A stretch of 63,912 bases of DNA, filler included, from Nemertoderma westbladi (lineage: Eukaryota > Animalia > Xenacoelomorpha): the NCBI GenBank assembly GCA_032718475.1. It is 4 parts of 4 records of this genome, joined end to end, with 100 filler letters (N's around TTAATTAATTAA, not from the genome) between each part and the next. Parts side by side here need not be neighbours in the genome. Positions count along the whole stretch, not along the records: positions 18,195 to 37,205 come from JAUCBJ010002902.1; 3 more parts are not named here. One strand, given 5' to 3'. Below the pieces are notes generated by a model that worked only from the letters and a program-made list of their open reading frames with translations, was not told the DNA's origin and did no database searches. Shown piece by piece: positions 5,004-43,300 of this stretch; the first letter of the stretch is position 1, and every line of letters begins with the position of its first letter. The position numbers and the translations under genes are program-made.

Positions 5004-5032
5004 GCTGTTAAACAAAATATTGGCAACACCAA

Positions 5033-18996: not shown

Positions 18997-19185
18997 ATGA
19001 TGTTTGCCATACTACCTCCGGACCCCGGCCCTACAGGAACTGTGTATTTCCATTCATCTTCGACAGCTATATGTACAATGAATGTAAAGAGATCGCTCCT
19101 CATGTTAGTTGGTGCGCCACAGCAGTGGATGTTGATGGCAACTACTTAGAGGGAAACAAAGGATTCTGCTCAGAAGGATGTCCAG
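18997..19185 (+). CDS. Exon encoding a fibronectin type II-like domain
   Basis: TTTCAG acceptor and CAG|GT donor, phase 1-1; DVCHTTSGPRPYRNCVFPFIFDSYMYNEC...WCATAVDVDGNY...GFCSEGCP. Confidence 0.85.
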
Positions 19186-19549
19186 GTGAAAAAATAGTTG
19201 AAATTTTAATAACTAAACTCCTCTTTTTAGTGGTAGGTAGTTGTTTTAGGAGAGAGGGACCCTCAAAAATAATGTAATTATTATTGTATTTCGGTAAACT
19301 TAAGTTGTGAAAGTGCTGGGTTCGTCGACCCCGGATGAGATATTTTTTGTCTTTTAATTGTTGCAGTTTAGGTGTACTGTCAGAAACACTAGAGAGAGCC
19401 TAAAGGCTCCCATGCTTATTGGAGCACTCTGCTTCTAGTGTTGGTCTTTCTGTAGACACTAAGAAGACCAACGTTTTAACTGTTAACTACGGTGGTCCTC
19501 AGAATTGTCTGATCGTAGGAGCATAAGTTCGAATAATGGCTTAATTGAC

Positions 19550-20000
19550 CATATGGATATAATTGGGATCACGGATACGGAAGTTAGATGAATACCGTCT
19601 GGTATGTAAGGCGAAGGCATAAGCAGCTTTGAATAAATAATCTCTCCAGGATTTGGAAGTCACAAAGAATGAAACGGAATAACAATGTTCGATTATTTAA
19701 GGCAGAGGCAGCAGTATAACTAATACTCCATGTGGGAGTCCGTGCAGGGCTCTGGATGGCACATATATAAGAATTACGCCGGGTTCATTGTGTCAACTAC
19801 AGTAGAATGAACACATCTCCAATCACACTATATACAACATACATAGGAAGTGTCTCATAGTCTCCCCAATCTTGTCACTTTAACGGAGCCACCTCCACTT
19901 TGCAGGACTTTGCTTTCACCGTGAAAACCAACCAGTGCACAATACTGTGCTTTGGCAGCCTCATGGATAAATAGGCATGGTGGAAAGGCCTTGACTTTCT
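19550..20000 (+). pseudogene. Degraded 3' fragment of RTE LINE family A
   Basis: Collinear nucleotide similarity to 10580-11040 (TCCAGGATTTGGAAGTCAC, CTGGATGGCACAT, TTTGCAGGAC, TTTGGCAGCCTCAT) with many indels. Confidence 0.8.
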
Positions 20001-20291
20001 TAATAAAATATAACATATTTTAATAAATCAAACATATTTTAGAAACCCTATTTATTTTGTTCTAATACTAATTTTAATAACTTTTTTTTAATTATACTAA
20101 TCTAATAATTTTTGTCCTAATTCTAATCTGTGCAATTCAGTACCTTATGGGTGTTTTATTAAACTTCAGGTGGTCTTTAAGTTTTACATATAATATTGAG
20201 ATTCAAATGTTACAAATTAGTTTCTTCCTACGTTGACAAATAAATGTGAATCCGTAATATATTGTCAGAGATTAAAATAAATATTGTAGAT

Positions 20292-20854
20292 TGTTAGCTT
20301 ATTCAATTCCGCTAACACCCCACAAAGTAAGCCGTTAAGCAATATTGGGAGCACGAGGTTGGGTAATCAACCTCGTGTGGCTAACTCGTGCCACCCCGAC
20401 AAAGTGGGAAGGAGAAACGCACAATAGGGGTCAGGGGCCATACCCCTGACAGAGAGAGAACAGTAGGAGTGAGGGGAAACACTCCAAAGGGCGCCAACAG
20501 GGATATTAGCCAATGGGAGGAAGGCACCGGCTAGGTACTGTAACAACGGCCAAACCGTGCAATATATATTATTAGGTACCATGTTACTGTAATCAGTTAT
20601 CTCATTGTGTTAGTCGGTTAGCTAGGGTAGAACGGAGACTTCTAATACCGTCCCTGTCTACCGCCATTATCTGTACATACTGTAGTACTTCAATTGCCAT
20701 CTCTTACTGAACTATATCCATCTTAACGTTTATATTATACATACATCGGAGAACTAATAACATCAGAACTCTCAAACTCTTTTCACATACAAACGGCGGG
20801 GACGCGTAATTACAATAACCGGATAAACCGGGATCCTCCTTGGATCCCGTCACA
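20292..20854 (+). repeat. 5' LTR
   Basis: Begins TG and probably ends ...CGTCACA; TATA-like TATATAT at 20563 and initiator TCAGTT at 20593; direct repeat of 33352-33905. Confidence 0.9.
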
Positions 20855-20893
20855 GTATTAGAATTCCAGCCAGCTACCGATCTAAAGTAAGAG

Positions 20894-23800
20894 ATGAGCG
20901 ACGCAACGCCAACGCGGACCCCGGACGAAGAACTAACGATCCGCGAGGCTGCGACCAGACGGTATAGGCCCAGGACGCCGGACCCATCGGTAACGGGTCA
21001 TCCGGCAGCTCAGGATGAGGGGGCCGTCTGGAGCCAGAGGTCGAGTCGAGAGGAGCGGGAGTCGAGTTGAGAGAAGGAGAGGGCGAGTTGGAAGGAGAAA
21101 GAGACGAGTCGACACACGACGACGGTCGACGTGCCGATGTCGCCGGCCAGCCACAGGCCGAGGGCGACGGACGGCCCACCGGAACGGCAATGGTGGGGCC
21201 GCCGGTACGACGACGGACCCGGAGAGATGGAGGAGAGGTCGGCGACGAGGACGTCGGGGTTTCTGATCGACTTCGACGGACCTACAACGCGACCCGGAAG
21301 CTACTTAAGGAGGCCAAGGAGGGGGCGAAGATAGACGAGGTAAAGTTGACACAAGGACTAGGTGAGTTGGATAAACATTTTAGTTATCTAATGTGCTTCG
21401 GGCAGAGAGAACTGGCCAAGGAGAGAGCGAGAGGGGTTGCTGAGGAACTGTGTGATTCATGGCGGTGTAGGGGTATGCAACCTAGTGTAGTGTACATAGG
21501 GCCATACTTAGTCGATGCCCAGGGTATAAAATTAGTGGGTTGGAGGAGACCAGAGGAGGGCGAATCCGAGGTTAACCCCGAGGATTCAGTCTCGTCAGTC
21601 AGAGGGAATTCCAGTTCCGGGAGGCGGGGGAGAGTTAGTAGGACGGGAAGGCGGAGGGAATCCGTCACAACCGATAAGTCTGCTACATCCTCCGTAAAAG
21701 AAAGACGGGTGAGGGAAATAAATGCGGTGTACCATTTCGATCTGATAGCGCAGGGCCAGAGAGAGGTAGAGAGACAGTTAGAGGAGGGGAAAGCGCTATT
21801 AGAGAAAGAGATGGAACTGGTTAAAGAGACCGGAGCGAGGGCCGAGAGAGCCACGAGAAGCTTTAGGGAGAGTGAGGAAATAGGAAGGAAGGAACAGGAG
21901 GAGCGTGAGGCGAGAGAGGAAAGTGAGCGTAAAGAGCGCAAGGCTGAACGTAAAGAGCGCGAGGCTAAAGAGGATAAGGAGCGTAGGGAGTGTGAGGCGA
22001 GAGAGGAAAGTGAGCGTAGAGAGTGCAAGGCGGAACGTAAAGAGCGCGAGGCGAGACGAACGGAGAGAATTGAGAGAGAGAAGGAACTGGCCGAACAGAG
22101 CGCGCGGGAGAGTCGGGAAATGATAGCAGATGGGAGGCGTATGCGGGATGGTTTACATGCCCGCCTAGGGGGGTTAATTCAGCACCAAACCAGACAGCAG
22201 CGCATACTGAAATTGGCACGATTGGGGTTGTCAGAGAGTGAGGCTGGGTCGAGTGCTTTCGAGGAGCCAAGGGCCGAGGAAACATTTATTAATACCCCAC
22301 TTACAGGAACCGCACGACAGACCCAAGACTGGTGTAACCATACGGGCGGGGGGGGGGGGGGGGGTAATAATAATACTACGGTAGACGACGTTGATATTAA
22401 TAGTACCGTATTGGATAACTCTAACCAAACTTTTATTGCAGGAAATATTTTACCTAGTAGTAGTAATTTAAATTTAAATCCGAATAATTATAATATTAAT
22501 GTAGTTACGCAAAATAATCCAAATAATCTAAATAATAACCCGAATTCGAATTTACAAAATAATCCAAGTAACGCAATTGCACAAAATAATCCGACTAGCT
22601 TTATTTTGAACGAACAAAATAATTCCGTTTCTAATTTGGGTACACAAAATAATTTAACTGGGGTGGAAGATTTAATTGATTTCAATAACGGTACCTGTGG
22701 TGCTATTAATGTGAACGCATCGGGCGTGTATAGCCCGGAAGCCAGCCTGATGGACCGCGTAGTTAACGAGCCGGAGGTGGCGGGGTTGAGTCAACCCGAG
22801 GTAAGCCTGGTAGGGCACGTAGTTAGTAGGCAGGAAGCGATGGGGTTGAGACAACCCGAGGTGGGCCTGGTAGGCCACGTAGTTAGTAGGCAGGAAGTGA
22901 CGGGGTTGAGTCAACCCGAGGTGGGCCTGGTAGGCCATGTAATTAGTAGGCAGGAGGTGGCGGGGTTGAGCCAACCCGGAGTAGGCCCGGTAGGCCAAGT
23001 AGTAGTAGAGAGAGAGGCAGGGGTAAGCGAACCCAGCCGTAGTAGAAACATTGTGTCGACTGGAGAGGGGTGTAGAAGTGAAGTAAGAGGTAGCGGCGTG
23101 ATATGTGGCGAGTGGGGGGGGGGGGGGGGGGGCTGCAGGAGCCCCACAACGGGAAGTTAGTGGCGAGTGGGGGGGGGGGACTACGGGAACCCCACAGCAA
23201 CAGGTTAGTGGCGAGAGGGGGGGGGGGGGCAGAGAGTGTCCCAGGGGGTCAGCGGATAATGCGCGGGCCGAATTAGGTAAACCGAAACACCCGGCGACGG
23301 AGAGTGATAGGGGGATTGCGAGTATCCCCAGCGGTGTGAGATCGAGCAGAGAGAGGCAGGTTGACGTCGCGAGAGGGTGGACGGAGCGTCGAGCCCGATC
23401 AGAAGAGGGAAGAAGAACAGTGGAGTTTAACCGGGAGGTCGACGAGAGATCTCACGAGCGGGAATACTGCACTGAAAGGAGAAGAAGAGAAGTCAGTAGG
23501 AGAAGTATCGCCGCGAACGATAGGAGAGCGAGGACGGATAGCGAGCCGTCGGTAGTCGAGATGGAAAGAGAGTGTCGGTGGGGTCGAACTTCGGGAGATT
23601 GCCGTCGTCCCGGAGAGATGCGACCTGACGAGGCGCATTACGCGTCGAGAGAGGGGTACACGATGTACCGGTACGAAGACGAGAGCAGTAGAGGGGGTCG
23701 AAGAGAAACTTTCCGACGGGATATACCTGCCGATCGAGAATACGGTAGCCGCGGGGAGGATTATTCGAGAAGAATAAACTTCGATCCCGAGCGACACATA

Positions 23801-24626
23801 CAGACTGTAGGACATACTGTAGGCCTTACTGCACATACCATAGGCCATGCTGACAGGAATAATGTAGGCGATAGGATAGCGCGGTCGACGGGATTGAACC
23901 CGGAGGTTGCGGAGTACATACCGGCAGGTAGGCCAGAAGCTGATAGGCCTATACCGGTACCAGTACAGCAGTATGACTACAGCATGCAAGGACATAACAT
24001 ATACCCAGGGGAGGGGGGAATTATTGCGGATAGGTGCATGGGCCCCAATATATTAACATCAACCCCAGTACCAAACATACCGGTGGGGGGGGGGGGGGGG
24101 GGGACAGGGTGACATTCCCCCATCACAATATCAACAATATATCCCAATAGGAGTAAGAACAACGAACCCCTTGGATAAAAATAGATCATGCGACACATAA
24201 ATATGGAGGGGGCCGCTACCCCCAATGATATACCCAAGCCAGAGGAGGGCAGGAAATAGGACGGACGGACCGCACCCAACAGGAGAAACTATGCAACATC
24301 CATCGAACCCATTGGAAGCGCAGGCGATGGGAATGGCCACGTTAATCGATGCGCTAAAAACTAGGATTGAGCTACCACCCGTGGAACCATTCAAATTCGA
24401 TGGGAGCAGGCCGGAAGAATATCTACAGTTTCGGCGCATGTATAGTAACGAAATACTAACAAAGAACTTGACGCAGGCGGAGTGCATACAACATCGTGAG
24501 GCAATACCAGGGCATAGAGGGCGGCTTCACGACGGCATGGCGGGCACTGGACAGGGAATACGGGCACCCGGCCAAGATCATCCGGCAAACCCTGAGGGGC
24601 ATAACATCGGGTGGCCTACAGGATAA
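20894..24626 (+). pseudogene. gag: Long, frameshifted gag N-terminal region
   Basis: Successive same-strand ORFs (20894, 21067, 23105, 24225) contain an Arg/Glu coiled coil, an Asn-rich tract and 20-aa repeats, then LPPVEPFKFDGSRPEEYLQFRRMY (BEL gag core, DUF1759-like). Several breaks fall at poly-G runs. Confidence 0.75.
22768..23000 (+). repeat. 60-bp in-frame tandem repeat in gag (about 4 copies)
   Basis: EVAGLSQPEVSLVGHVVSRQ-like units. Confidence 0.85.
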
Positions 24627-27600
24627 CCCCGTTAGCATAAAGACATTCGCTAATAAAGTCGAGAAGGCGCTAATCGTGCTAAAGACGCTAGACGCGCCAT
24701 ACGAACTCAACGCGTCCAACAACATCACCACGATAGCGCAGGCACTACCGATATGGCTACGCAACAAGTGGAGGAAAATCGCTTTCTCCACTCGAGATAG
24801 GAAGGGTGCGGAACCGGGTTTAGAAGAAATGTCGAGCTTCTTAAATTACGAAGCCGAATTAATAACCGACCCAGTCTATAGTGAGGACAGCCTGGGAAAG
24901 GGACCAAGAACCGATTACCATAGACCGAAGCCAGAACACAACACGTCGAACGCATTACCAAAGCTCAGGCAATCATTGCCATACGCAGCGACGCAGGGGA
25001 CTGCAAGTCCACAGGTAGCCGAGGGTAAGACCACACCATGGAACGGACAGGGGAAAAATAACAACACAAATAAATATAACCCTAGTACGCCCAGTAGGAC
25101 GAACCCAAACAATAAGAATAGTAGGGACTTTGGTACAAACGCAGCTGCGATACGCAATGCACTGTATAAGGACAGCTACAACCCAAAGAGCAAATGCCAG
25201 CTACATACAAATGCGCTTCATCAAACCATGAACTGCAGGTACTGGCAAGCGCTACCCAGAGAAGATCAGGTAGAATACACAGCGAGAAATGAGATCTGCT
25301 CGCGATGTGTGATGAGTGGACATAGAGCTAGGCAATGCAAGGAGACGCCGGTCAAGTTCGGTCAAAGGAAAGGCCAAACGATGGCAACGAGCACAGTAGG
25401 GGCGAAGAAGAGAGGGACGGTGCTACTTGGGGTAGTACCAGTGCGAGTGATTGGAGAAGGCAATCGATCAGTAACAACACTGATGCTGGTCGATAGTGGA
25501 GCTGCCTTCACATTAATCAAGGATTGGGTGGCCGAAGAGATAGGATTGAGGACGAGGCCAAGTAGAATGGCGGTAACAACCATCTCCAGCAAAGATAAGG
25601 TCCTGGAGATGAGAACCGGATGGTGCGCGATTGCAGCAATAGCACCGGGATACGACTATGGGGCGAGCATCGACCCCATCCAAGTGATAGAGTCAATAAA
25701 CATCAATGCCAGACGGCCAACCAACATCGAGGTCGAACAATATAAATTTCTGGATGATATCGACTTCTCAATCCCAGAGGTGGACGTTAGGAAGGTATCC
25801 ATCATAGTAGGAATGGACCGCCCGACGGCCCATGAAAGAATGCAAACGGTCTTCGGCGAAGACAGGCAGTGTGACCCATTGGCGATACTGACACCATTCG
25901 GGTGGACGCTGAGTGGCCCAATCAAGAGCAAAATACCATTTAGGATGTCGGAGACATCAGGATGCATGTTCGCGGGAACTATGCAGGAAATGGGTGATGA
26001 GAGAGCAGAGGAGCAGCTTAAAAGACTGCTCAGACAGGATTTTGAAGGATTAAAGGAGACCGGGGTCGGGACCTCGGTGGAAGACAAACAGGCTCGACAA
26101 AGCGTAGAGGAGTCTATAAAATGCGACGAAGGGCAGTACACCATAGGAATGGTATGGAAGCTACCAAGGCTACCACTGCCCGATAATAGAGGGATGGTGC
26201 TCACGAGGCTTCGTAAGTTAAAACAGACATTAAAACGGAGCCCCGAAAAGAATGAGTACATCCACAAGACAATCAGAAAGTACGTCGAGAAAGGATGGGC
26301 CGTGGAGTTACCGGTCGACGAACCAAACACGGACAGGACATATTACCTGCCACTCCACGTGGCTTTAGATCCAAAGAAAGGTAAACTGCGGATGGTAGTT
26401 GATGCATCGGCCAAGACCAACGGAAAATGCCTAAACGACTATCTGCTGGAGGGTCCCAATATCTACAACTCGGGGATCGAGGTTCTACTTAGATTCAGGA
26501 ATGGGAAACACGCCTTCACCTGTGATATAGAGGGCATGTTCAACCAAGTCCATGTAACGGAAGAAGATAGCGATAGTCAACGCTTCTTATGGTACAACGG
26601 CGATGAAGAACCGTCGATCATACCGACGTACAAGATGATAGTACAGAACATGGGAGCCAAGTCGTCTTCATTTACGACGACTATGGCAGTAAGAGATACA
26701 GTGAAGGGGAAGGAGGATAGATACAGCACTAGGGCCGTCGATATGATTCGACGTGGCTTCTACGTAGATGACGGAATGGAGTCTGGAAATACAGTTAAGG
26801 AGATACTGGACACAGGGCGCGGGGTTCGCGACATCCTAAAAGGATCCGGCTTTAACGTGACCAAATTCCAATCCAGTTTGGAGGAATTTATCAAGGCGAT
26901 AGAGGACGAGAGACCAGAATCGACCATGGATAATCCCACAACAGCCAAAGGGCAGCACATGGCGAACAAGAGGACAGAGTCTCAACAGAAGGCATTGGGA
27001 ATCGTGTGGAACAGAGAGACAGATGACCAGCTGAGCCAGGAGGGCGCAGACATCCACACAAAGAGAGGCTATATATCATACATAGCAAGAATATACGATC
27101 CCCTAGGCCTAGCATCCCCACTATTAGTCACGGGGAAACAGATACCCAAGAGAGTATACAAACTAAAGGACGAGTGGGACGTAGAGGTACCAGAAGAGAT
27201 CAAGAAACAGTGGTGTAAGTGGACAGAAGGTTTGGAGAAGATGGGAACATACAGCATGCCGCGAGTGTATTTCCCAGATGGGGACATGACGAACCTGGAT
27301 CTGCACATGTTCTCCGATGCGTCACTAGAGGCATACGGAGCGGCACTCTATTTAGTACAACGAGAGGGGCCTCATAAGCCCAGACTTGCCTTCAGCAAGG
27401 CGAAGTCAACGCCACCAGATTCGGCATCGGTTCCCAAACTAGAGTTGACAGCGGCGAGGCTAGGAGTTAGGGCCACAGCATACATAATGGACGCTATTCC
27501 CAACATAGTGGAGACACACTACTGGACGGATTCCATGGTAGTGCTTGGCTGGCTACATAACGAGAAAACGCGATACCCTATATTCGTCGCAAATAGAGTG

Positions 27601-28470
27601 GACGAAATAAGGGCGACCACAGAGTTAGGAAGGTGGTACTACTGCCCTACGGACGAGAATCCAGCAGACTTGTTATCGAGGGGCATGGCACGCCACACTT
27701 TCTTGAAAAAGGAAGAATTGTGGCAACACGGGCCACAGTTTCTGAGCGACAGGGAGGCCTGGCCGCCGATGAGAAAGGTGGACCCGGGCTCGGGAAAAGT
27801 AGTATCAGAGGGAGAAGAAGGAGATTCAGAGGGAGAAGAGATATACTCCCAGATGGTGAGGGAGATAACGGACGTGCAACCTAAACCAGAAGAACTGTGC
27901 GATAACCCGACGGATAAACTCCTCAGCTACAGCTCTAGTTGGTATAAGACCAAGGAATTAGTGGCGTACTGGAGAGCCTTCGGGAATTTCCTCGCGGGAG
28001 TTGGCAAAGGCAAGAAGATCAGGACAACCATAGATCTGGAAGGAGCGGCCAAAGCAGTCATCCGCTATGAACAACGGAAGAACTATGGCGACGAGGTGGA
28101 ACGCGTCGGTAAACAACAGCATCTTCGACGGGACAGCGAGCTGATCACGCTGTCACCACAACTTAATGATGACGGGATTCTAGTAATGAACTCTAGGGTG
28201 GGCTACAACAACAGCATCGTTGTACCACCGAAGCCCATCATCATCCCTACAGGATCGCCAATAGTCCACCAGATTATCTGGGACTCCCACAAGTCGATAT
28301 TGCACGGGGGCACCAACCGAACCCTTACGGAGATACGGAGGACCTTTTGGGTCAAACAGTTGAGGAAGAAGATAAAAGCGGTAGTGAGGCAGTGCCAGAC
28401 CTGCCGACGAGCGAAGAAGGAGCGAGCCATACAGGAGATGGCACCACTACCGGCGAGTAGGGTAAGACAG
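24496..28470 (+). CDS. pol: BEL/Pao gag C-terminus, aspartic protease, reverse transcriptase, RNase H and integrase zinc finger
   Basis: Knuckles CQLH...H....C and CSRC....H....C; protease LVDSGA; RT YLPLH, KLRMVVDAS, LNDYLLEGP, DIEGMFNQV, YVDD; RNase H FSDASLEAYG, PKLEL, WTDS, NPAD; integrase HHCC then QEMAPLPASRV. The last ~47 aa of the called ORF are read-through into an insertion. Confidence 0.95.
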
Positions 28471-29473
28471 TGTCTGGGATGTCGGCCAGCGCTTCTCTTG
28501 CACGATAGACCGTGCAGACCGTCCGCTTCGACTGGGTTACCACAATGGGCGCAGCTGTGGGGTTCCGTAACCTTGCATCCCAGCCTGGTAGCGATGGAGA
28601 TCCGGAATTGAGAGTTGGTAAGTTTCAGCCCGAGGGAGGAGGCCGGGACTGCATCTAACCAGCAGCCCGCTATGCTGGAGTTTAATGAGTTCAGGCAGGC
28701 GATGTCGACTGGCGAGGACGAAGAATGGAGTTTAAAAATGGAATCCTCGTGGATTGGCTGCATCCACAAACTCTGCATGCTGGAGGAAGGCGATGGATCA
28801 CTCGCGGGGACGTGGGTTCTCCACTGCTCCAGGGCTCGGGTAATGGCCTGGTCAGCGAGGGTCTCCCGTGGCGTGAAGAGGCGCCCCGCCAGATCGGCGC
28901 TAGCAGCAGCGGAAGCCAGGAAGGCTGAGGGTGCGAGCTGTGTAGCGCTGATCAGGCCAAGGCCGCCCACACGGGTGGGAGACACGCCTGCAACCAGGCT
29001 CGGTCGTCGATTCTCGTGTTCGCTACCTGTTGGAGGGCGTCTCTCATAGTCCGGTCGAACTCAGCGAGGAGGTCGGGTTTTGCGAAGCACGGCGTGGTGC
29101 GGAGGAAATAAGTCAACCGAGGGATGGAGAAGGAATGTTTGAGAAGGTAGAAGGCGTGGTGGGCGTCTATGTGTGGGAGCCGCGATGTCAGCGTGGCCAG
29201 ATCGTCGACTTTACTGCGCAGACAGGACTGAATGGCTGCATCTCCTATCGGGGCACCCAACATCGTCAGTTCCCCTAAAGGGGGGGATCTAATCCCGCCA
29301 CAAACCTCCTCGAAAGCACTCAGGATGACTGAACGTGATTCCTCCGACTCAGGCCCGAGGAAGAACAGCTCGCACTTGGCGGGTTTCACCTCGAGGCCGC
29401 ACTTCGCTCCCTCTACGATGATGGTCCGGAGGTCGTTGAGGACTACCCGGAAGTCGTCGCCAAGGTTACCATC
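28470..29473 (-). mobile_element. Internal fragment of a CRE-clade (restriction-like endonuclease type) non-LTR retrotransposon inserted in the BEL integrase
   Basis: Minus-strand DGNLG, GLEVKPAKCE, LGAPIG, PRLTYFLRT, LP..GGLGL.SA...APSAFLAS, WLDAVP..LGLKL, FRISIATRLG, C..CG...D/A.G.H.LSC..S.GR..RH; one frameshift near 28985; GC-rich. Confidence 0.85.
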
Positions 29474-30397
29474 ATATTACTGCCATTTACGCATTGCGGT
29501 GTGGACATGTTCGGGCCGATAAAGATCAAGGTGATGCGGCACACGGAGAAACGCTACGGCATTATCTTCGTATGTAACAACACGCGGGCGGTAGGGATAG
29601 AACTCGCCCAAGATGCAACCGCATCAGCATTCATTAATGCATTAGAAAGGTTCAGAGACCGCAAAGGTGGGACGATCGCAGTAATGTACTCTGACAGCGG
29701 AACCAACTTTGTGGGAGCAGAGAACGAGATGGCAGAGGCCTTGGACATCTTGGAAGGGGAGGAAGTCAGGGCAGCCATGAGATGACGACAAATAAAGTGG
29801 GAGAGAAGGACGCCGTATGCACCACATACACTAGGATGCGTCGAGAGACAGGTGGGCAGTTTGAAGCGTCTCATGATGAAGTTAATGAACACCCATATGG
29901 TCATGGAGGACGTCTTGAGAACAGTACTTGCAAAGTGTGAGGGTATCATTAGTAGACCGCTATATCCGGAGAATGATGACCCTGAGTCATTAGATGTGCT
30001 GACGCCCAGCCATTTTCTAATGGAAAGGCCAGTGACCATCGATATGCGGGGTGTAGACCCAGATGACATACACTCCCGCCAGAGTTGGAAAGTCGCTAAA
30101 GCGATAAGCGCAGAGTATTGGAGGAGGTGGGTAGAGGAATACCTACCCACGCTTCACAAAAGAAGCAAGTGGAGGAAGTCGAACAGGGAGTTAAGAGAGG
30201 GAGATCTCGTAATCGTTACGGATGATACTATCATCAACAACCAGTGGCAGTTGGCGAGAGTTGTAGGCACTTACTCCGATGAGGACGGAAGAGTCCGATC
30301 GGTAGAAGTGCGGATAGGTAGCAAGATAGGTGCGAAGGACAGAAAAACCTACAGGAGAGCAGTAAGGAAATGCTGTCTATTAGAAGGGGCACCTTAG
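29474..30397 (+). pseudogene. BEL integrase catalytic core and C-terminal domain (DUF5641-like)
   Basis: PFTHCGVDMFGP, SDSGTNFVGA, GCVERQV, LTPSHFL, YWRRWVEEYLPTL, WQLARV..DEDGRVRSV; in-frame TGA at 29783. Confidence 0.92.
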
Positions 30398-30504
30398 ATT
30401 GGGGTTAGAGAGGAGTTTAGTCGTCCAAGTTTTGGACTGAGGGGGGTGGGATTGAGGGTGAGACGCCCTTCCCACACATAAAATAAATAAAAAATAAATA
30501 AAAA

Positions 30505-30875
30505 ATAGTTAGTTAGTTAGTTAGTTAGTTAGGAGGTACGTAGTACCGAGAGTTAGGAGTTAGTTAGTAGAGGTGTTAGAGAAGTAGTTAGAGGGTACGT
30601 AGTACCGCTAGTTAGTGGAGTCAGAGTAGTAAGAGGGTATGTAGTACCGTTAGTCAGTGGAGTAGTTAGAGGGTACGTAGTACCGTTAGTTAGTGAAGTT
30701 AGAGTAGTTATTAGAGGGTACGTAGTACTGCTAGTTAGAGATATTAGAGTAAGAGTTAGAGGGTACGTAGTACCGCTAGCTAGTTAGAGAGAGAGAGAGA
30801 GTAAGAGTTAGAGGGTACGTAGTACCGCTAGTTAGTTAGAGGTTAGTAAGAAGAGGGTACGTAGTACCGATTAGT
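30505..30875 (+). repeat. Imperfect tandem array between pol and the accessory ORF
   Basis: (AGTT)n followed by about 8 copies of AGAGGGTACGTAGTACCG separated by variable AGTT/AG spacers. Confidence 0.85.
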
Positions 30876-31351
30876 AATAGGGGTAGAAGGGATATGTATA
30901 ATATGGATATTAGTTAGCAGTTAGTAGCGAGAGGGGGGCATATGAGTACAGCTGGATAAATCGTGTAGGCCACGCGACGCATACTGCTGTACTGCACAGG
31001 CCCATAGAGTAGGTCAGAATGTGGATTATGAAATAGAATAATCCATAAATAGTAAGTAGTAGAATTAAATTAAATCAAAATAAAATAGAATAAGAATAGG
31101 GCTAAAAGTTACAAATGATGGTAACAGTAGGGAAATTATTCTGGAACATAATTAAAGTAACTGACAGAAACTGCAAATTAGATTAAATTTACTAGCTTCA
31201 AAATTAAGTAGTTGGAATTTAGGCTATAAGGCGAAATTAGATAAGGAATAGGCCATTCTCGGACTGTACAGACCATCATAAACTTATCACTCATCTGTAC
31301 TGCGCCTTGGTAAGGCACCACCTTACAGGTGAGCGAGTGAGAGTGTTCGGA

Positions 31352-31999
31352 ATGGCAGGAAAACTGATCAGAAAGAGAAAGACGGAGCAAGGAGGAAAGG
31401 AGATACTGGTGGATTTCACCAAGAGGCATCCGGAAGAGAAGACGAGAGGATACTACGAACAGTTGGAGAGGGGTCACGCAGCTCGAGCGCTACAAGACCA
31501 TTTCAGGGAAGTGCACGAACAGCGGCTGGTCGGGACCTACGGGACGCCGTCGCTGGACAATGCGATCTTCGAACACTTCCACTATGTAATAAAGGGAGAC
31601 GAGGCGAAGTTCGGGATTCCGAAGTATGCGAGGGAGTCGCCGAAGAAGGATTGGAAGAGGTTCGTAGAGTCCGTCAGCAGGGGAGGATATATGATCCTAG
31701 ACGACGAGGGAACCGTGGAAGACGAGGATGGTTCGAGGCGAGGATCAGCGGGGTCGGCCAGGACCATACTCCTACATTTGGCCGCGCCAAATGGGGACAT
31801 TTTCTTATTTGACCTAGGAACGTATGGGAACAAGGACGGGCCGAAATTAAACCGGTTGCCGAAAGCGGTGCAAGTCCTGGTAAGAGAGAAGTCGACGACG
31901 AAGGTGGGATCGGCGATTCGCGACGACGCGGAGAGACTACTGTGGGAGACAGACCCACCAGGAAAGGAGCTGCTTGTACCGGTTCCAGAAAGGAACTAG
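31352..31999 (+). CDS. BEL accessory ORF part 1: DEDDy 3'-5' exonuclease-like domain (WRN/EXD2/mut-7/RNase D type), partial
   Basis: ExoI-like GYMILDDEG; LLHLAAPNGDIFLFDL; ExoII-like LPKAVQVLVREKSTTKVGSAIRDDAERL. No ExoIII motif is visible. First ATG at 31352. Confidence 0.75.
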   Translation: MAGKLIRKRKTEQGGKEILVDFTKRHPEEKTRGYYEQLERGHAARALQDHFREVHEQRLVGTYGTPSLDNAIFEHFHYVIKGDEAKFGIPKYARESPKKDWKRFVESVSRGGYMILDDEGTVEDEDGSRRGSAGSARTILLHLAAPNGDIFLFDLGTYGNKDGPKLNRLPKAVQVLVREKSTTKVGSAIRDDAERLLWETDPPGKELLVPVPERN

Positions 32000-32648
32000 T
32001 TGTCTCTACTGCCGTGAGTCGAGCCACAGGATGGGCGCGTGTCCACGGTTGCATAACCGATGCTCGAAGTGTAACTTTCGGGGACACTACGGACACCAGT
32101 GCGACTGGATGGATGATGAAGAGAAGTTCAGAATCTTCGAGGAGTGGGCCGACGTCGGGGCCATGACGCGGCAACGCATGAAGGCCCAGGAGTTCAAGTG
32201 GGGTTTCTTCCTTATCAATCAGGAGGCTCACTTGGAAATCATAAAGCGGAGGTTACCGTTTACCTATCAAGAGGTAGCAACGGCGGCGTCGTATGCCGGG
32301 GTGATAAATACGCAAAGGTATTTGGACAGGTGGACACCACAGAACCGAGGGGAGTTTAGGGATTTCTTGGTGGATCATGTGCCGCGGGCAATGAAGATGA
32401 TCTTATGGGACGCCACCAGGGAGAGAAAGCAAGGCCATTCGGAGGGACCACCCGCAAAGCAGTACCGGGCACTGATAACACCAGCGCCCAAGGAGCCAAC
32501 AACCGGGATCAGTAAGGAGGTGGCGGCGAGAGTCCGAAGACAGAAAGCGGATCCCAGAGGAGCGGTAGTGACCAGGAAACAACCCAGGGAGGAGGACGGC
32601 AAAGGGAAAGACTTGAGGTGGTTCCCGAAGTCAGGAGGGATAAACTGA
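31974..32648 (+). CDS. BEL accessory ORF part 2: tandem CCHC zinc-knuckle protein with basic tail
   Basis: CLYCRESSHRMGAC-PRLHNR-CSKCNFRGHYGHQC (two CX2CX4HX4C). It overlaps part 1 and joins it if one base near 31976 is removed. Confidence 0.75.
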   Translation: MYRFQKGTSCLYCRESSHRMGACPRLHNRCSKCNFRGHYGHQCDWMDDEEKFRIFEEWADVGAMTRQRMKAQEFKWGFFLINQEAHLEIIKRRLPFTYQEVATAASYAGVINTQRYLDRWTPQNRGEFRDFLVDHVPRAMKMILWDATRERKQGHSEGPPAKQYRALITPAPKEPTTGISKEVAARVRRQKADPRGAVVTRKQPREEDGKGKDLRWFPKSGGIN

Positions 32649-33351
32649 GGCTTCAATGTGGTACGCCTGGAAGGCGCCACGTGAGACGTGCGAACTATTA
32701 AGTACAAATTCAAGTAATCTAAATAATCAAATAAGTGCAATTTGTATGTACGTACGTAGCAATCAGTAATCTACGAGAATATACGTTCGAAGTAAGTAAT
32801 ATAGTCATACAACCTTTCTCAATTAGCTACTGGGACTGGGGGGCTAACTGACTATGGTACTATGGACGAGACACCAGACGATTTCACACTTCTTGAGTGC
32901 GACGCCACAGGAGTGGGGGTGAGACTCATCAGAAGGAATAAGGTAGTCAAAGAGGGGTCGAGTAAAGGTGATAGTGTGGAGTGCGGAGAGAGTGCGGATG
33001 CAATTCAAGTGTGGGGGGGAGGATAAGAGGCTGAGTGAGGGGCAGGGAAGTCCGAGAGTTAGAGCGGAAGTGAGGAGAAGTAGAGGAGAGTCAGGGTGAG
33101 AACAGAGAGGAGTTAAAGTGGCGAAAGTGTTGGGGAAACAAAAGTCGTGTGATAGGAGTGCACGATCGGCCCAACATGGGATGCCAGGCGAACCGGGTAG
33201 CATTATCATACCCATAGGGAGCGGCCTGGAAAGCCGGCTCCGAGAGAAAATAATTCCACCCCACACCCGATACTAGATCGGGATCCAGCGGAATTGTAGC
33301 CCACTTGAGGAGGATGCTATCTTCTCACCGGGAAGATAGCATGGGGGGGAG

Positions 33352-33905
33352 TGTTAGCTTATTCAATTCCGCTAACGCCCCACAAAGTAAGCCGTTAAGC
33401 AATATTGGGAGCACGAGGTTGGGTAATCAACCTCGTGTGGCTAACTCGTGCCACCCCGACAAAGTGGGAAGGAGAAACGCACAATAGGGGTCAGGGGCCA
33501 TACCCCTGACAGAGAGAGAACAGCAGGAGTGAGGTGAAACACTCCAAAGGGCGCCAACAGGGATATTAGCCAATGGGAGGAAGGCACCGGCTAGGTACTG
33601 TAACAACGGCCAAACCGTGCAATATATAGTATTAGGTACCATGTTACTGTAATCAGTTATCTCATTGTGTTAGTTGGTTAGCTAGGGTAGAACGGAGACT
33701 TCTAATACCGTCCCCGTCTACCGCCATTATCTGTACATACTGTAGTACTTCAATTGCCATCTAACCTTACTGAACTATATCCATCTTAACGTTTATATTA
33801 TACATACATCGGAGAACTAATAACATCAGAACTCTCAAACTCTTTTCACATACAAACGGCAGGGACGCGTAATTACAATAACCGGATAAACCGGGATCCT
33901 CCTTG
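33352..33905 (+). repeat. 3' LTR, truncated at its 3' tip
   Basis: Matches the 5' LTR up to CCGGGATCCTCCTTG, with about 7 substitutions and one small indel by eye. The terminal CA and TSD are absent. Confidence 0.92.
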
Positions 33906-34412
33906 ATAAGGCATACTGCATTAGTGGGAAATCCGTATTGAGTACACATGGTAGGCCTATACTTGAGTTAAAACGGATATGTATCCTTTTATATACTGTA
34001 CGCTAAAAAATAAACGTTATTTTTTTTTTGACAAACAATCAGTAATGGTTTCAAGACTGATGATATAAAGTTATAAAATGTTAATAATTTTTAAAATTGA
34101 ATTAAATATTGACTGGAAAAACGACATTATGTAATGTGGGGAAGGTTAATAAGACGGATGAAGGAAGGTCGACACACACAAACCGAAAAAGAAATAAAAT
34201 AAATTTAGGTTGGTTTTGTGCTTCGGAAATTTTTGCTTTAATAAATTCCTTTAACTCTGTATATATTTTTATCCATGCACTTGGCCCTACTCTATTTTTT
34301 GGTAACCTTCCACCCTATTTATCAGCCCCACTCACCGTACATGACATTTCACTTAAATACTTTATACTATACATTATTTCTTTATAATATTATGTTTTAT
34401 GATTCCTTTCAG

Positions 34413-34538
34413 CAATTAGTCATTGCGCTCAACATGTACATGAATGCGACATCCATGCAGACTGCATTGATACCGAACTCGGCTATGACTGCGAATGCAC
34501 TACCACAGGGTATTACGGAGATGGTTTTACATGCACAG
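34413..34538 (+). CDS. Exon encoding a calcium-binding-type EGF domain
   Basis: TTTCAG acceptor and CAG|GTAAG donor, phase 1-1; ISHCAQHVHECDIHADCIDTELGYDCECTTTGYYGDGFTCT. Confidence 0.88.
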
Positions 34539-35136
34539 GTAAGCAGCAATTACTCCAGTTATGGTTATGCAGATTGAGATTGATGTACGTAATATTCGTA
34601 CTAATGATTGCCTTGCCTGTAAGTGTAATAATTTAAAATGTATTCATTTAAGAACCGATTATGGTTACTAAATATCAGGAACTGCTTTAACGATTACGAT
34701 GAAATTTACACAGAGGCTAGCTGGCTGACCAGTTTCTAAGGGCACTGGCACATATGCCTACTCCATACTCAGTCCATTTTGCACTCACCCTACGAAAAAT
34801 ACAAGTTTTAGATTTCGAGTACTGTTGTTGCCGTCAATTCTCAATCATGGGAATTACGCCGATGTAAGTTCGAGAGGGTTTTCGATCCCCAAATACTTTT
34901 CACCGGTATTTTTGTTGGGGTAAATAGCAGCCCAGGTAGAACTGGACGTCCACGAAAGAAATTGAACGTTCATATTTCGAACTTTTTTCCTGCGAATCTG
35001 AACATCAATGAAATATCGTTCAAAATAGGTAAAATTTGCTGACGTTGTGAGTTATTTACCAGATTTTGACGTTCATATTAGGTAATTTTACGTCCCTACA
35101 TTAACGAAATTGATAATGAAACCAATGAATGATTAA

Positions 35137-36709
35137 CCCTATTAAACCCGGGGGGGGGGGGTCAATATGACCCCCCCCCCCGTGGTTTTTTTATTATAAT
35201 TCTGAAACAAACGCAGTTGGGAATCTGCAATTTTATGAATTTTCTTAAAAATCTATTGTCTTCCTAATAGTGAAAACCGTTTTCAAAAATATTGGGTACT
35301 TTTCGAGTTATAGCACCATTTTTTAACCCTACTTTTGACACTTTTTTTGAGACGTTTTTTGAAAATTACATTTCATTAAATATGAATTTTAACATCTCTA
35401 TTTTTTATTTACACCGGTTTTTTGGTGTTAGAAATTGGATGAAATTCATATAAATTGATTTAGAAATTTCAAACTTTTTTTTTTCGGTGGGTGCCATATT
35501 TTGGTGCCAGCACCAAATTTTGAAATATGTCAATTTTGTAAATTGATTGTTTGAAAATTTTTTTACGCAATTGGGGTTTTTTGTGGTTCTGGATTCGATT
35601 AAATATATACGAGTTGCACCAAGCGTATCAAACTCGTATTTTTCGGTGCTGTGTGCAAATTTTGGTGCTAGCACGAAATTTTGAAAAAATCCATTCAATA
35701 GATAAAATTGCTTGTGACAATTTATTTCTAGCGTTTTAGAGGTTTATGGCTGTTCTGAATTCAATGGAATATATAATTATCGAACTAGACATCTCAAACT
35801 TGTATTTTTCGGATGTGGGTGCAAAATGTGGTGCTAGCACCAAATTTTGAGAACCATCAAATATATCAATTGATTGTGTCACCTTGTTTCTTGCGTTATA
35901 CGGGTTTGTGATGGTTCTGAATTCAATGGAATCAGTAAAAATTTCATAAGAGTTCTCAAACTTGTATTTTTCGCCGGTGGGTGAAAATTGTTGTGCCAGC
36001 ACCAAATTTTGGAAAATATGCAAATTGATCAGTAGATAGTATCACCTTGTTTCTTGCGTTATGCGAGTTTTTTTGAGGGTCCTGAATCCGATGGAATCAA
36101 TAAAAACAGCACTGGACATCGCAAACTTGTAATTTTTGGTGATGGGTACGAAATTTGGTGCTAGCACCAAAATTTGCCAAATTGCGCCGAAAAATACAAG
36201 TATCAATGATCTGGCATATTAGAAATGTATTCCATTATAATCAGCGCCCTCGAAAACCTGAAAATGTGAATTTATAGCATCGTATAAGTGAATTAAAAAT
36301 TTTGTGTTCTAACTGAAAAGTGCTGGTTACTTGTTTTTTTCATTTTTTTCCTACGCAGAGAGGACTAAACAGCCATTTATAGTAATCATATCATTTTTAA
36401 ATATTTTCCAATGTATTTTGCACCCCAGAATACCTGTATTGAAAAATAATTAGCCGAACTTTCAAATTTTGTGAAAATTGTGCACTACTTGTAATTTTGG
36501 TGCTGCAATATAACCACCCCAGTACATTTTTTCGAAAATTTTTTTTTTCGGTCGGATCCAGACAAGTGATACCTACGTACAAACAAAAAATCGGACGTTT
36601 TCGTAAATATTTGTAGATTTTAGAGGGGGGGGGGGGGGGGGTCAATATGACCCCCCCCCCCCCCCCCCCCGGTATTTGTACATCATTTTATAGCCCGGTA
36701 CTAATAGGG
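35137..36709. mobile_element. Non-autonomous piggyBac-like element
   Basis: TTAA on both sides; TIR CCCTATTA..CCGGG / CCCGG..TAATAGGG; G-run GTCAATATGA C-run hairpin near both ends; internal ~160-bp degenerate repeats. It interrupts another repeat rich in GAACGTTCA (about 34926-36830). Confidence 0.85.
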
Positions 36710-37205
36710 TTAATGAACTAAATCAAACGAATATTGAACGTTCAAATTACATTCAGTTTTGCGTTCAGTTTTTGTACCTAAATATGTATGTTGTTTGAAC
36801 GTTTATGAACGTTCAAACATAATTTACTTTAATTTGTTATGTCAATGGCATTAAATTGGTTCAAACTTGTTCGTGGCACAATTATCTGATTATTTATAAT
36901 TGTACATTATTTTTTTGTGTTACTTAGCCTACTCCTTGCATGGTATGGTTGGTGTGGTTCCGCTTATACCTAGACTAATGGTTCCTTCCAAATACGAAAC
37001 AATTACTTTAAGTAATCACAAAATTAATCACACAACAAAACACTGATAACCAATATAATGCTGACAAATTTTTACACATTTTAAACAACAAATAACATCA
37101 AAATTAAACAAAGGTGATTCCTCTGACTTCAAAAGCTGAGACACTATGACACAAAAAAATGTATTAAAATTATTACAATATATTAGGCCTATTGAACCAA
37201 GAAAA

Positions 37206-37305: not shown

Positions 37306-40300
37306 CTACCTACCTTGTACTTACCTGATACCTACCTTGTACTTACCTGATACCTACCTTGTACTTACCTGATACCTACCTTGTACTTACCTGATACCTA
37401 CCTTGTACTTACCTGATATCTACCTTGTACTTACCTGATACCTACCTTGTACTTACCTGATACCTACCTTGTACTTACCTGATACCTACCTTGTACTTAC
37501 CTGATACCTACCTTGTACTTACCTGATACATACCTTGTACTTACATGATACCTACCTTGTACTTACCTGATACCTACCTTGTACTTACCTGATACCTACC
37601 TTGTACTTACCTGATACATACCTTGTACTTACCTGATACCTACCTTGTACTTACCTGATACCTACCTTGTACTTACCTAATACCCACCTTGTACTTACTG
37701 TACCTGATACCTACCTTGTACTTACTTGATACCTACCTTGTACTTACCTGATACCTACCTTGTACTTACCTGATACCTACCTTGTACTTACCTGATACCT
37801 ACCTTGTACTTACCTGATACCTACCTTGTACTTACCTGATACCTACCTTGTACTTACCTGATACCTACCTTGTACTTACCTGATACCTACCTTGTACTTA
37901 CCTGATACATACCTTGTACTTACATGATACCTACCTTGTACTTACCTGATACCTACCTTGTACTTACCTGATACCTACCTTGTACTTACCTGATACCTAC
38001 CTACCTTGTACTTACCTGATACCTACCTTGTACTTACCTGATACCTACCTTGTACTTACCTGATACCTACCTTGTACTTACCTGATACCTACCTTGTACT
38101 TACCTGATACCTACCTTGTACTTACCTGATACCTACCTTGTACTTACCTGATACCTACCTTGTACTTACCTGATACCTACCTTGTACTTACCTGATACCT
38201 ACCTACCTTGTACTTACCTGATACCTACCTTGTACTTACCTGATACCTACCTTGTACTTACCTGATACCCACCTTGTACTTACCTGATACCTACCTTGTA
38301 CTTACCTGATACTACCTACCTTGTACTTACCTGATACCTACCTTGTACTTACCTGATACCTACCTTGTACTTACCTGATACCCACCTTGTACTTACCTGA
38401 TACCTACCTACCTTGTACTTACCTGATACCTACCTTGTACTTACCTGATACCTACCTTGTACTTACCTGATACCTACCTTGTACTTACCTGATACCTACC
38501 TTGTACTTACCTGATACCTACCTTGTACTTACCTGATACCTACCTTGTACTTACCTGATACCTACCTTGTACTTACCTGATACCTACCTTGTACTTACCT
38601 GATACCTACCTTGTACTTACCTGATACATACCTTGTACTTACATGATACCTACCTTGTACTTACCTGATACCTACCTTGTACTTACCTGATACCTACCTT
38701 GTACTTACCTGATACCTACCTACCTTGTACTTACCTGATACCTACCTTGTACTTACCTGATACCTACCTTGTACTTACCTGATACCTACCTTGTACTTAC
38801 CTGATACCTACCTTGTACTTACCTGATACCTACCTTGTACTTACCTGATACCTACCTTGTACTTACCTGATACCTACCTACCTTGTACTTACCTGATACC
38901 TACCTTGTACTTACCTGATACCTACCTTGTACTTACCTGATACCTACCTTGTACTTACCTGATACCTACCTTGTACTTACCTGATACCTACCTACCTTGT
39001 ACTTACCTGATACCTACCTTGTACTTACCTGATACCTACCTTGTACTTACCTGATACCTACCTTGTACTTACCTGATACCTACCTTGTACTTACCTGATA
39101 TCTACCTTGTACTTACCTGATACCTACCTTGTACTTACCTGATACCTACCTTGTACTTACCTGATACCTACCTTGTACTTACCTGATACCTACCTTGTAC
39201 TTACCTGATACATACCTTGTACTTACATGATACCTACCTTGTACTTACCTGATACCTACCTTGTACTTACCTGATACCTACCTTGTACTTACCTGATACC
39301 TACCTTGTACTTACCTGATACCTACCTTGTACTTACCTGATACCTACCTTGTACTTACCTAATACCTACCTTGTACTTACTGTACCTGATACCTACCTTG
39401 TACTTACCTGATACCTACCTTGTACTTACCTGATACCTACCTTGTACTTACCTGATACCTACCTTGTACTTACCTGATACCTACCTTGTACTTACCTGAT
39501 ACCTACCTTGTACTTACCTGATACCTACCTTGTACTTACCTGATACCTACCTTGTACTTACCTGATACCTACCTTGTACTTACCTGATACATACCTTGTA
39601 CTTACATGATACCTACCTTGTACTTACCTGATACCTACCTTGTACTTACCTGATACCTACCTTGTACTTACCTGATACCTACCTTGTACTTACCTGATAC
39701 CTACCTTGTACTTACCTGATACCTACCTTGTACTTACCTGATACCTACCTTGTACTTACCTGATACCTACCTTGTACTTACCTGATACCTACCTTGTACT
39801 TACCTGATACCTACCTTGTACTTACCTGATACCTACCTTGTACTTACCTGATACCTACCTTGTACTTACCTGATACCTACCTTGTACTTACCTGATACCT
39901 AACTTGTACTTACCTGATACCTACCTTGTACTTACCTGATACCTACCTTGTACTTACCTGATACCTACCTTGTACTTACCTGATACCTACCTTGTACTTA
40001 CCTGATACCTACCTTGTACTTACCTGATACCTACCTTGTACTTACCTGATACCTACCTTGTACTTACCTGATACCTACCTTGTACTTACCTGATACCTAC
40101 CTTGTACTTACCTGATACCTACCTTGTACTTACCTGATACCTACCTTGTACTTACCTGATACCTACCTTGTACTTACCTGATACCTACCTTGTACTTACC
40201 TGATACCTACCTTGTACTTACCTGATACCTACCTACCATGTACTTACCTGATACATACCTTGTACTTACCTGATACCTACCTTGTACTTACCTGATACCT

Positions 40301-43300
40301 ACCTTGTACTTACCTGATACCTACCTTGTACTTACCTGATACCTACCTTGTACTTACCTGATACCTACCTTGTACTTACCTGATACCTACCTTGTACTTA
40401 CCTGATACCTACCTTGTACTTACCTGATACCTACCTTGTACTTACCTGATACCTACCTACCTTGTACTTACCTGATACATACCTTGTACTTACCTGATAC
40501 CTACCTTGTACTTACCTGATACCTACCTACCTTGTACTTACCTGATACATACCTTGTACTTACCTGATACCTACCTTGTACTTCCCTGATACCTACCTTG
40601 TACTTACTTACCTGATACCTACCTTGTACTTACCTGATACCTACCTTGTACTTACCTGATACCTACCTTGAACTTACATGATACCTACCTTGTACTTACC
40701 TGATACCTACCTTGTACTTACCTGATACCTACCTTGTACTTACCTGATACCTACCTTGTACTTACCTGATACCTACCTTGTACTTACCTAATACCTACCT
40801 TGTACTTACCTGATACCTACCTTGTACTTACCTGATACCTACCTTGTACTTACCTGATACCTACCTTGTACTTACCTGATACCTACCTTGTACTTACCTG
40901 ATACCTACCTTGTACTTACCTGATACCTACCTTGTACTTACCTGATACCTACCTTGTACTTACCTGATACCTACCTTGTACTTAACTGATACCTACCTTG
41001 TACTTACCTGATATCTACCTTGTACTTACCTGATACCTACCTTGTACTTACCTGATACCTACCTTGTACTTACCTGATACCTACCTTGTACTTACCTGAT
41101 ACCTACCTTGTACTTACCTGATACCTACCTTGTACTTACCTGATACCTACCTTGTACTTACCTGATACCTACCTTGTACTTACCTGATACCTACCTTGTA
41201 CTTACCTGATACCTACCTTGTACTTACCTGATACCTACCTTGTACTTACCTGATACCTACCTACCTTGTACTTACCTGATACCTACCTTGTACTTACCTG
41301 ATACCTACCTTGTACTTACCTGATACCTACCTTGTACTTACCTGATACCTACCTTGTACTTACCTGATACCTACCTTGTACTTACCTGATACCTACCTTG
41401 TACTTACCTGATACCTACCTTGTACTTACCTGATACCTACCTTGTACTTACCTGATACCTACCTTGTACTTACCTGATACCTACCTTGTACTTACCTGAT
41501 ACCTACCTTGTACTTACCTGATACCTACCTTGTACTTACCTGATACCTACCTTGTACTTACCTGATACCTACCTTGTACTTACCTGATACCTACCTTGTA
41601 CTTACCTGATACCTACCTTGTACTTACCTGATACCTACCTTGTACTTACCTGATACCTACCTACCTTGTACTTACCTGATACCTACCTTGTACTTACCTG
41701 ATACCTACCTTGTACTTACCTGATACCTACCTACCTTGTACTTACCTGATACCTACCTTGTACTTACCTGATACCTACCTTGTACTTACCTGATACCTAC
41801 CTTGTACTTACCTGATACCTACCTTGTACTTACCTGATACCTACCTTGTACTTACCTGATACCTACCTACCTTGTACTTACCTGATACCTACCTTGTACT
41901 TACCTGATACCTACCTTGTACTTACCTGATACCTACCTTGTACTTACCTGATACCTACCTACCTTGTACTTACCTGATACCTACCTTGTACTTACCTGAT
42001 ACCTACCTTGTACTTACCTGATACCTACCTTGTACTTACCTGATACCTACCTTGTACTTACCTGATACCTACCTTGTACTTACCTGATACCTACCTTGTA
42101 CTTACCTGATACCTACCTACCTTGTACTTACCTGATACCTACCTTGTACTTACCTGATACCTACCTTGTACTTACCTGATACCTACCTTGTACTTACCTG
42201 ATACCTACCTTGTACTTACCTGATACCTACCTTGTACTTACCTGATACCTACCTTGTACTTACCTGATACCTACCTTGTACTTACCTGATACCTACCTTG
42301 TACTTACCTGATACCTACCTTGTACTTACCTGATACCTACCTTGTACTTACCTGATACCTACCTACCTTGTACTTACCTGATACCTACCTTTTACTTACC
42401 TGATACCTACCTTGTACTTACCTGATACCTACCTTGTACTTACCTGATACCTACCTTGTACTTACCTGATACCTACCTTGTACTTACCTGATACCTACCT
42501 TGTACTTACCTGATACCTACCTTGTACTTACCTGATACCTACCTTGTACTTACCTGATACCTACCTTGTACTTACCTGATACCTACCTACCTTGTACTTA
42601 CCTGATACCTACCTTGTACTTACCTGATACCTACCTTGTACTTACCTGATACCTACCTTGTACTTACCTGATACCTACCTTGTACTTACCTGATACCTAC
42701 CTTGTACTTACCTGATACCTACCTTGTACTTACCTGATACCTACCTTGTACTTACCTGATACCTACCTTGTACTTACCTGATACCTACCTTGTACTTACC
42801 TGATACCTACCTTGTACTTACCTGATACCTACCTTGTACTTACCTGATACCTACCTTGTACTTACCTGATACCTACCTTGTACTTACCTGATACCTACCT
42901 TGTACTTACCTGATACCTACCTTGTACTTACCTGATACCTACCTTGTACTTACCTGATACCTACCTTGTACTTACCTGATACCTACCTTGTACTTACCTG
43001 ATACCTACCTTGTACTTACCTGATACCTACCTTGTACTTACCTGATACCTACCTTGTACTTACCTGATACCTACCTTGTACTTACCTGATACCTACCTTG
43101 TACTTACCTGATACCTACCTTGTACTTACCTGATACCTACCTTGTACTTACCTGATACCTACCTTGTACTTACCTGATACCTACCTTGTACTTACCTGAT
43201 ACCTACCTTGTACTTACCTGATACCTACCTTGTACTTACCTGATACCTACCTTGTACTTACCTGATACCTACCTTGTACTTACCTGATACCTACCTTGTA

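Follow-up and report, generated by a model that had tools for sequence, protein, structure and literature searches.

A family-wide third gene with a likely DEDDy exonuclease domain and zinc knuckles in a BEL/Pao retrotransposon of Nemertoderma westbladi

The element and its surroundings

The DNA analysed here (hereafter the window) is a stretch of 63,912 nt from Nemertoderma westbladi (assembly GCA_032718475.1), and the retrotransposon described below sits in the part derived from JAUCBJ010002902.1 (positions 18,195-37,205). The element is 13.6 kb long, or approximately 12.7 kb without a nested insertion, and its two long terminal repeats (LTRs) differ by seven substitutions and one 3-nt indel over 554 columns (Table 1). 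In its gag-pol, Pfam families Peptidase_A17 (E 2e-39), DUF5641 (E 5e-26) and, short of the cut-off, DUF1759 (E 0.002) were identified, the reverse transcriptase (RT) motif YVDD lies at 26761, and the order PR-RT-RNase H-IN is present together with the signature domains of BEL/Pao elements. Because matches to Peptidase_A17, DUF1759, aspartic protease, RT, integrase and DUF5641 all lie between the LTRs, the element is assigned by sequence to BEL/Pao (Belpaoviridae). The gag-pol of this copy (20292-33905) is decayed, being split over several frames, and its integrase region is interrupted by the nested insertion, which has no Pfam match and is, judging from its motifs, presumably akin to the 3' end of a non-LTR retrotransposon.

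Table 1. Features of the retrotransposon and of ORF3, in window coordinates
Feature	Position	Strand	Remarks
5' LTR	20292..20842	+	starts with TG; no terminal CA at the right identity boundary
U5/primer-binding-site hairpin	20829..20849	+	8-nt arm 20829-20836 pairs with 20842-20849
Putative primer-binding site	20841..20858	+	begins with TGG at the LTR boundary
gag-pol, BEL/Pao type	20896..30397	+	DUF1759, aspartic protease, RT, Peptidase_A17, integrase H2C2 and core, DUF5641
Nested insertion in integrase (~0.93 kb)	28543..29471	-	8-nt direct repeats at 28535 and 29464 on its two sides
ORF3, part before the break	31352..31936	+	N-terminal region of ~110 residues without family assignment, then likely N-half of a DEDDy exonuclease
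ExoI-like motif	31694..31711	+	D-x-E aligns with the reference ExoI columns (MAFFT)
Strand pair corresponding to the QLA...YLF block in exonucleases of the WRN/RNase D type	31769..31816	+	custom profiles, MAFFT, block model
ExoII-like block, K-x-G...D	31856..31939	+	Asp on the ExoII column (custom profiles, MAFFT, block model)
Break (segment missing here, carried by other copies)	31935..31937	+	contig ends on both sides
Three tandem CCHC zinc knuckles	31941..32102	+	31941-31973 (clipped), 32001-32042, 32061-32102
ORF3, C-terminal part	32103..32648	+	~105 residues predicted helical (low confidence), then basic low-complexity tail
Folded RNA element	33218..33348	+	immediately 5' of the polypurine tract; z -3.2 relative to dinucleotide-shuffled sequences
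CCA-ending 18-nt complement of the primer-binding site	33270..33287	+	14/18 paired, last 9 perfect
Polypurine tract	33343..33351	+	directly before the 3' LTR
3' LTR	33352..33905	+	direct-repeat comparison with the 5' LTR

LTR elements generally have TG...CA termini and are flanked by a target-site duplication. In this copy the LTR identity also takes in the two leading nucleotides of the primer-binding site (20829-20849 and 33892-33905), without a terminal CA, and no target-site duplication of 4-6 nt was found within 33860-33960 of this single decayed copy; the irregular right LTR end may represent either an unusual end for the family or an irregular insertion. The region ahead of DUF1759 (20896-24112), comprising approximately 1000 codons with charged and Asn-rich stretches and 60-nt repeats, is unusually long for a BEL/Pao gag. 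Between pol and the third gene, eight imperfect purine-rich tandem repeats of ~45 nt occupy 30516-30892, and a regulatory or packaging role is possible for this array. Elsewhere in the window, a 765-codon open frame with C2H2 zinc fingers (5012-7309) was noted, which by eye we take to resemble an Ovo-type transcription factor, as well as a sequence resembling a fibrinogen-domain protein on the minus strand (1767-2855) and long satellite arrays at 14612-18094 and 37307-47072 with 38-nt and 22-nt units.

A third gene between pol and the 3' LTR

A sense open reading frame, ORF3, is located downstream of pol, which ends at 30397, and upstream of the 3' LTR, which starts at 33352, and hence inside the element, as a first-pass annotation of this DNA had stated. 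It consists of two overlapping open frames (31241-31999 and 31884-32648), from which 431 residues can be read with an X at the break. The length of ~430 residues and the end at 32648 given in the first-pass annotation are therefore retained, but its start at 31307 is not, the frame being open from 31241 with the first ATG at 31352. Hydropathy averaged over 19 residues peaks at 1.07 and 0.49 in the two pieces, and the N-terminus is basic without a hydrophobic core; judging from these properties, there is no transmembrane helix in the two pieces read and ORF3 is not an env gene, in agreement with the original proposal. An AG-ending, acceptor-like stretch is visible by eye at 31310-31330, 20 nt before the ATG, and ORF3 may be read from spliced RNA.

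The two frames had been attributed to one frameshift, an explanation that gave way to a deletion once contigs from four runs (X1, X2, X3 and X5, from three studies) were placed on the region. Rightward, contigs from all four runs diverge from the window sequence at 31935-31936; leftward, those from X3 and X5 diverge at 31935-31937, and two X5 contigs continue for 124 and 131 unlike letters beyond the break. No small indel within 31680-32180 occurs among the variants listed (the best 40 of 111). Because the contigs diverge on both sides and no such indel is seen, the break marks where a segment linking the ExoII-like block to the first knuckle is missing, that is, a deletion at ~31936 in this copy relative to other copies. 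In the reference alignment of exonucleases ExoIII follows ExoII by ~70-80 residues, and the missing segment is therefore where ExoIII would be; it would also include the initial Cys of knuckle 1, and the absence of an ExoIII region from this copy, proposed earlier, agrees with the segment that contigs place past the ExoII-like block. This copy cannot make the whole ORF3 protein, and its gag-pol is broken too.

ORF3 is nevertheless a family-wide accessory gene kept by purifying selection. Its presence in other copies and a signature of selection had both been put forward as checks on the first-pass annotation, and both were borne out. The interval 31680-32180 is matched by 1372, 941, 893 and 10 contigs in the four runs. 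Among the best 40 of the 111 variants in this interval, 13 of the 15 located before the break fall at third positions of frame A (p 3e-5), 12 being synonymous, and 20 of the 25 located after it fall at third positions of frame B (p 2e-6), with 20 synonymous; the alternative frames fit the variant positions poorly on both sides of the break. The skew is weaker in a separate variant set (40 of 918 rows listed), where third positions account for only 4/7 and 2/5 of the 12 ORF3 coding rows that remain when two rows upstream of the ATG are excluded. These are mostly sites at which the window differs from nearly all copies, and we infer that the weaker skew reflects private decay of this copy.

Given this evidence, it is extremely unlikely that ORF3 is a one-off nested insertion or a chance open frame private to this copy. 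Such an origin would be in keeping with the other nested insertion that this copy does carry and with the lack of homologues in protein libraries. It is opposed by the strong third-position skew in both ORF3 frames and by the unbroken run of variant contigs that begins in integrase, crosses ORF3 and reaches the LTR, every bin of this region being covered in X1-X3; the linkage of integrase to ORF3 is drawn from this continuity, none among the listed contigs spanning the two. A minority of contigs from X1-X3 join 32098 to 32633 or 32664, which indicates that some copies are devoid of most of the part of ORF3 that follows the knuckles.

The exonuclease-like region and the zinc knuckles

The first-pass annotation classified ORF3 as a DEDDy exonuclease on the basis of three quoted motifs, all of which are present at the positions of the ExoI-like motif, strand pair and ExoII-like block in Table 1. 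It also held that the absence of an RNase H-fold exonuclease match would refute this classification, and, strictly taken, no such match was found in any standard library. The nuclease part of ORF3 before the break, which amounts to only about half of the domain, has no match in Pfam (including PF01612), NCBIfam, PHROGs or PDB; hhalign to bacterial WRN-like proteins gave a probability of 0.07, and pairwise BLAST gave nothing. No real match to ORF3 was found among 5.8 billion and 1.84 billion proteins, no relatives were found in the viral contigs searched, and tblastn on plasmids and phages returned matches only at E 4-9. Two candidates were rejected: a Maribacter repeat protein, the single match in a search of representative proteins, was regarded as a chance match, and two metagenome loci turned out to be one bacterial mobile-element protein matched via a single 8-residue word.

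Since there is no library-level match, the DEDDy call rests on motif order and on the statistics of custom profiles. These were built from bacterial PF01612-type references after the hypothesis had been formed, and three reference sets were tried; the custom reference profile recovers WRN, mut-7, EXD2, Rrp6, RNase D and TbRND in PDB. With the first, narrow bacterial profile, 374 of 1000 shuffles scored as well as ORF3. With 24 references the number was 37 of 1000, ORF3 ranked first in the window and the placement of ExoI was nearly right. With 31 references only 4 of 2000 shuffles were as good, and ORF3 (4.0 bits, E 0.36 within the window) ranked first of 228 six-frame window pieces. MAFFT alignment with 31 diverse references placed the ExoI Asp and Glu, the QLA/YLF strands and the ExoII Asp on the right columns unaided. 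An ordered four-block model, though it set ExoI on the wrong residues, gave ORF3 a score of 21.2, which exceeds all 2000 shuffles and the best non-DEDDy score (13.8) in a background of 711 pieces; true distant members score 17-63. The three acidic residues on the ExoI and ExoII columns are unchanged by any listed variant (the best 40 of 111). Single-sequence AlphaFold, run with no alignment, gave low pLDDT values of 34 and 48. A half domain with two long loops would explain the weak local scores, and on motif order, custom profiles and MAFFT alignment the N-half of ORF3 probably has the DEDDy fold, so that the earlier classification is upheld as likely but lacks a standard-library match.

Two full CX2CX4HX4C knuckles had been reported downstream of the motifs, and to these is added a third, clipped one (C-X4-H-X4-C, devoid of the first Cys) that begins right after the break at 31941. 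The knuckles are the sole ORF3 domain with a Pfam signal (zf-CCHC_3, E 0.0016, short of the cut-off), and the C-terminal part that follows them has no family match. When the part after the break was compared with 177,635 PDB sequences, the top match was TbRND, with three knuckles in register, at a non-significant E of 2.2; the read-through ORF3 matched the same protein at E 0.33, over the knuckles only and again not significantly. Knuckle arrays resemble each other; the match indicates a shared layout and is not evidence of descent, convergence being as likely on these sequences. In TbRND, an RNase D, four CCHC fingers at the C-terminus strongly raise RNA binding and guide-RNA U-tail cleavage (PMC7797062). 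As in TbRND (PDB 7C42/7C45), ORF3 would combine a DEDDy exonuclease domain, inferred in this case, with tandem CCHC knuckles downstream, and the knuckle spacing aligns; TbRND differs in being a cellular mitochondrial enzyme with four knuckles, whereas ORF3 has extra N- and C-terminal regions.

These data bear on two alternatives to an active RNA-trimming enzyme. ORF3 could be an RNA-binding chaperone or export factor in which the knuckles work and the N-half is either a dead DEDDy derivative, like EXD1 or Maelstrom, or an unrelated domain. All library searches were negative for the nuclease part, the ExoIII region is missing from this copy, only the knuckles give a Pfam signal, and RNA-binding yet inactive DEDD derivatives are known (PMC5408684); the three acidic residues on the ExoI/ExoII columns, unaltered by the variants listed (the best 40 of 111), argue against it, and we regard this reading as unlikely. 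It is improbable that ORF3 is instead a DNA-directed, WRN/DnaQ-like enzyme that proofreads or trims cDNA ends before integration. The matching references are WRN-like and the right LTR end of this copy is irregular, with neither terminal CA nor target-site duplication; however, a single irregular end, seen in a single decayed copy, counts for little, and the CCHC array of the closest layout match, TbRND, acts on RNA (PMC7797062).

The 3' folded RNA, possible roles of ORF3 and known systems

The segment between ORF3 and the 3' LTR contains a folded RNA element whose z value is the lowest of 20 windows across 30401-33370. No match was found in Rfam for 32650-33360 at E up to 10, and ARAGORN identified no tRNA gene in the window; the folded element is therefore no recognisable tRNA or ribozyme. 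Within it, 64 nt before the 3' LTR, lies the CCA-ending complement of the primer-binding site, which with 14 of 18 positions paired is the best such complement in the whole window (runner-up 12). Shuffled controls did as well in 6 of 3000 cases for the 703-nt 3' UTR and in 12 of 150 for the entire internal region; in duplex energy the complement takes 11th place, and part of it is buried in a hairpin. Summed contig depth jumps 4- to 11-fold over the preceding bin at the bin of the complement in four of four runs, which, as depth is not copy number, gives only a hint in support of a primer. A long hairpin at 33325-33351, directly before and overlapping the polypurine tract, was also noted, and it may control plus-strand priming.

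The preferred reading, which we hold tentatively, is that ORF3 encodes an enzyme that trims RNA of the element itself at the 3' end and would most likely serve to finish a CCA-ending primer of the element's own making. Its product would be a 3'-5' exonuclease of the DEDDy class that grips RNA through its tandem zinc knuckles; by analogy with TbRND, the knuckles would hold single-stranded RNA and feed the 3' end to the active site for trimming. E. coli RNase D takes off nucleotides after the tRNA CCA (PMC7797062). In the weakest step of this scheme, the enzyme would act on an RNA derived from the folded 3' element and cut it back until the CCA at 33287 is terminal; this RNA would then pair with the primer-binding site and prime reverse transcription. 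A fold-back or a 5'-3' pairing role for the complement would be an equally simple reading, because the 8-nt copy in U5 folds onto the same primer-binding site. That the element represents a host-tRNA-independent BEL/Pao lineage, with its own CCA-ending primer and its own RNase D-like, knuckle-guided maturation enzyme in the env slot, is quite unlikely when taken as a whole; if the primer reading is true, the element would no longer need host tRNA and would evade silencing by tRNA fragments.

A counter-silencing nuclease, which would trim or degrade host piRNAs, siRNAs or tRNA fragments, or remove decay-marking U-tails from element RNA, fits the same fold and selection evidence as the primer reading. 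TbRND trims the U-tails of small guide RNAs and depletes these RNAs when overexpressed (PMC7797062), and a silencing role was raised for DEDDy ORF3s by Rodriguez et al. (PMC5408684). No sequence feature points to a host small-RNA substrate, however, and this reading does not explain why a CCA-ending complement lies close to the polypurine tract; this possibility lies on the unlikely side. The ORF3 family offers high copy number, selection, the TbRND analogue and a candidate substrate in cis, which makes primer maturation versus counter-silencing testable.

Nematode BEL elements of the Cer7/Cer13 type may contain a domain resembling RNase D together with an internal primer that is tRNA-like. 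If so, they would share superfamily, nuclease class and the primer idea with the present element. They differ in carrying env, which is absent here (PMC554778 and PMC9094657). Among the papers covered by the literature search, none reports an exonuclease gene in a BEL/Pao element: the word 'exonuclease' does not occur in the main text of PMC3118150, PMC554778, PMC2774666 and PMC9094657, and no exonuclease ORF is mentioned in the portions available of PMC10886601, PMC11662393 and bioRxiv 10.1101/073510, a group of sources in which tRNA-like sequences of Helenus are described as not pairing with their own primer site. The novelty attached to the locus in the first-pass annotation is lower than assumed, since both a DEDDy ORF3 in the env slot (rotifer Ty3/gypsy elements, PMC5408684) and the exonuclease-CCHC-array layout (TbRND, PMC7797062) are already published.

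The ICTV profile of Belpaoviridae lists only gag, pol and env, a length of 4.2-10 kb, and host tRNA-Arg or -Gly as primer (PMC8742986). The present element resembles Belpaoviridae/Semotivirus members in its LTRs, PR-RT-RH-IN order, BEL/Pao signature domains and polypurine tract, and differs in its length of 13.6 kb, its non-env third gene and its possible internal primer. The closest parallels to ORF3 are the DEDDy-exonuclease ORF3s of the bdelloid rotifer LTR retrotransposons Juno and Vesta (Rodriguez et al. 2017, PMC5408684), which have been cited in reviews (PMC5718144, PMC6431247 and PMC6338049). Like ORF3, these are sense third ORFs between pol and the 3' LTR, without envelope features and with RNase D-like DEDDy motifs. 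When the two are set against each other by description, Juno and Vesta are Ty3/gypsy elements (Juno/Vesta/TelKA/Mag clades), in contrast to the BEL/Pao element here; the available text describes no CCHC array in their ORF3s, a Cys-His-Cys motif being present in two, and no clear departure from neutrality, whereas ORF3 here displays a strong synonymous skew (PMC5408684). To the retrotransposon DEDDy ORF3s reported from rotifers, the present family adds one from another superfamily that is present in high copy and clearly under purifying selection; its RNA-gripping domain has a functional analogue already solved, TbRND, and a candidate substrate lies in cis.
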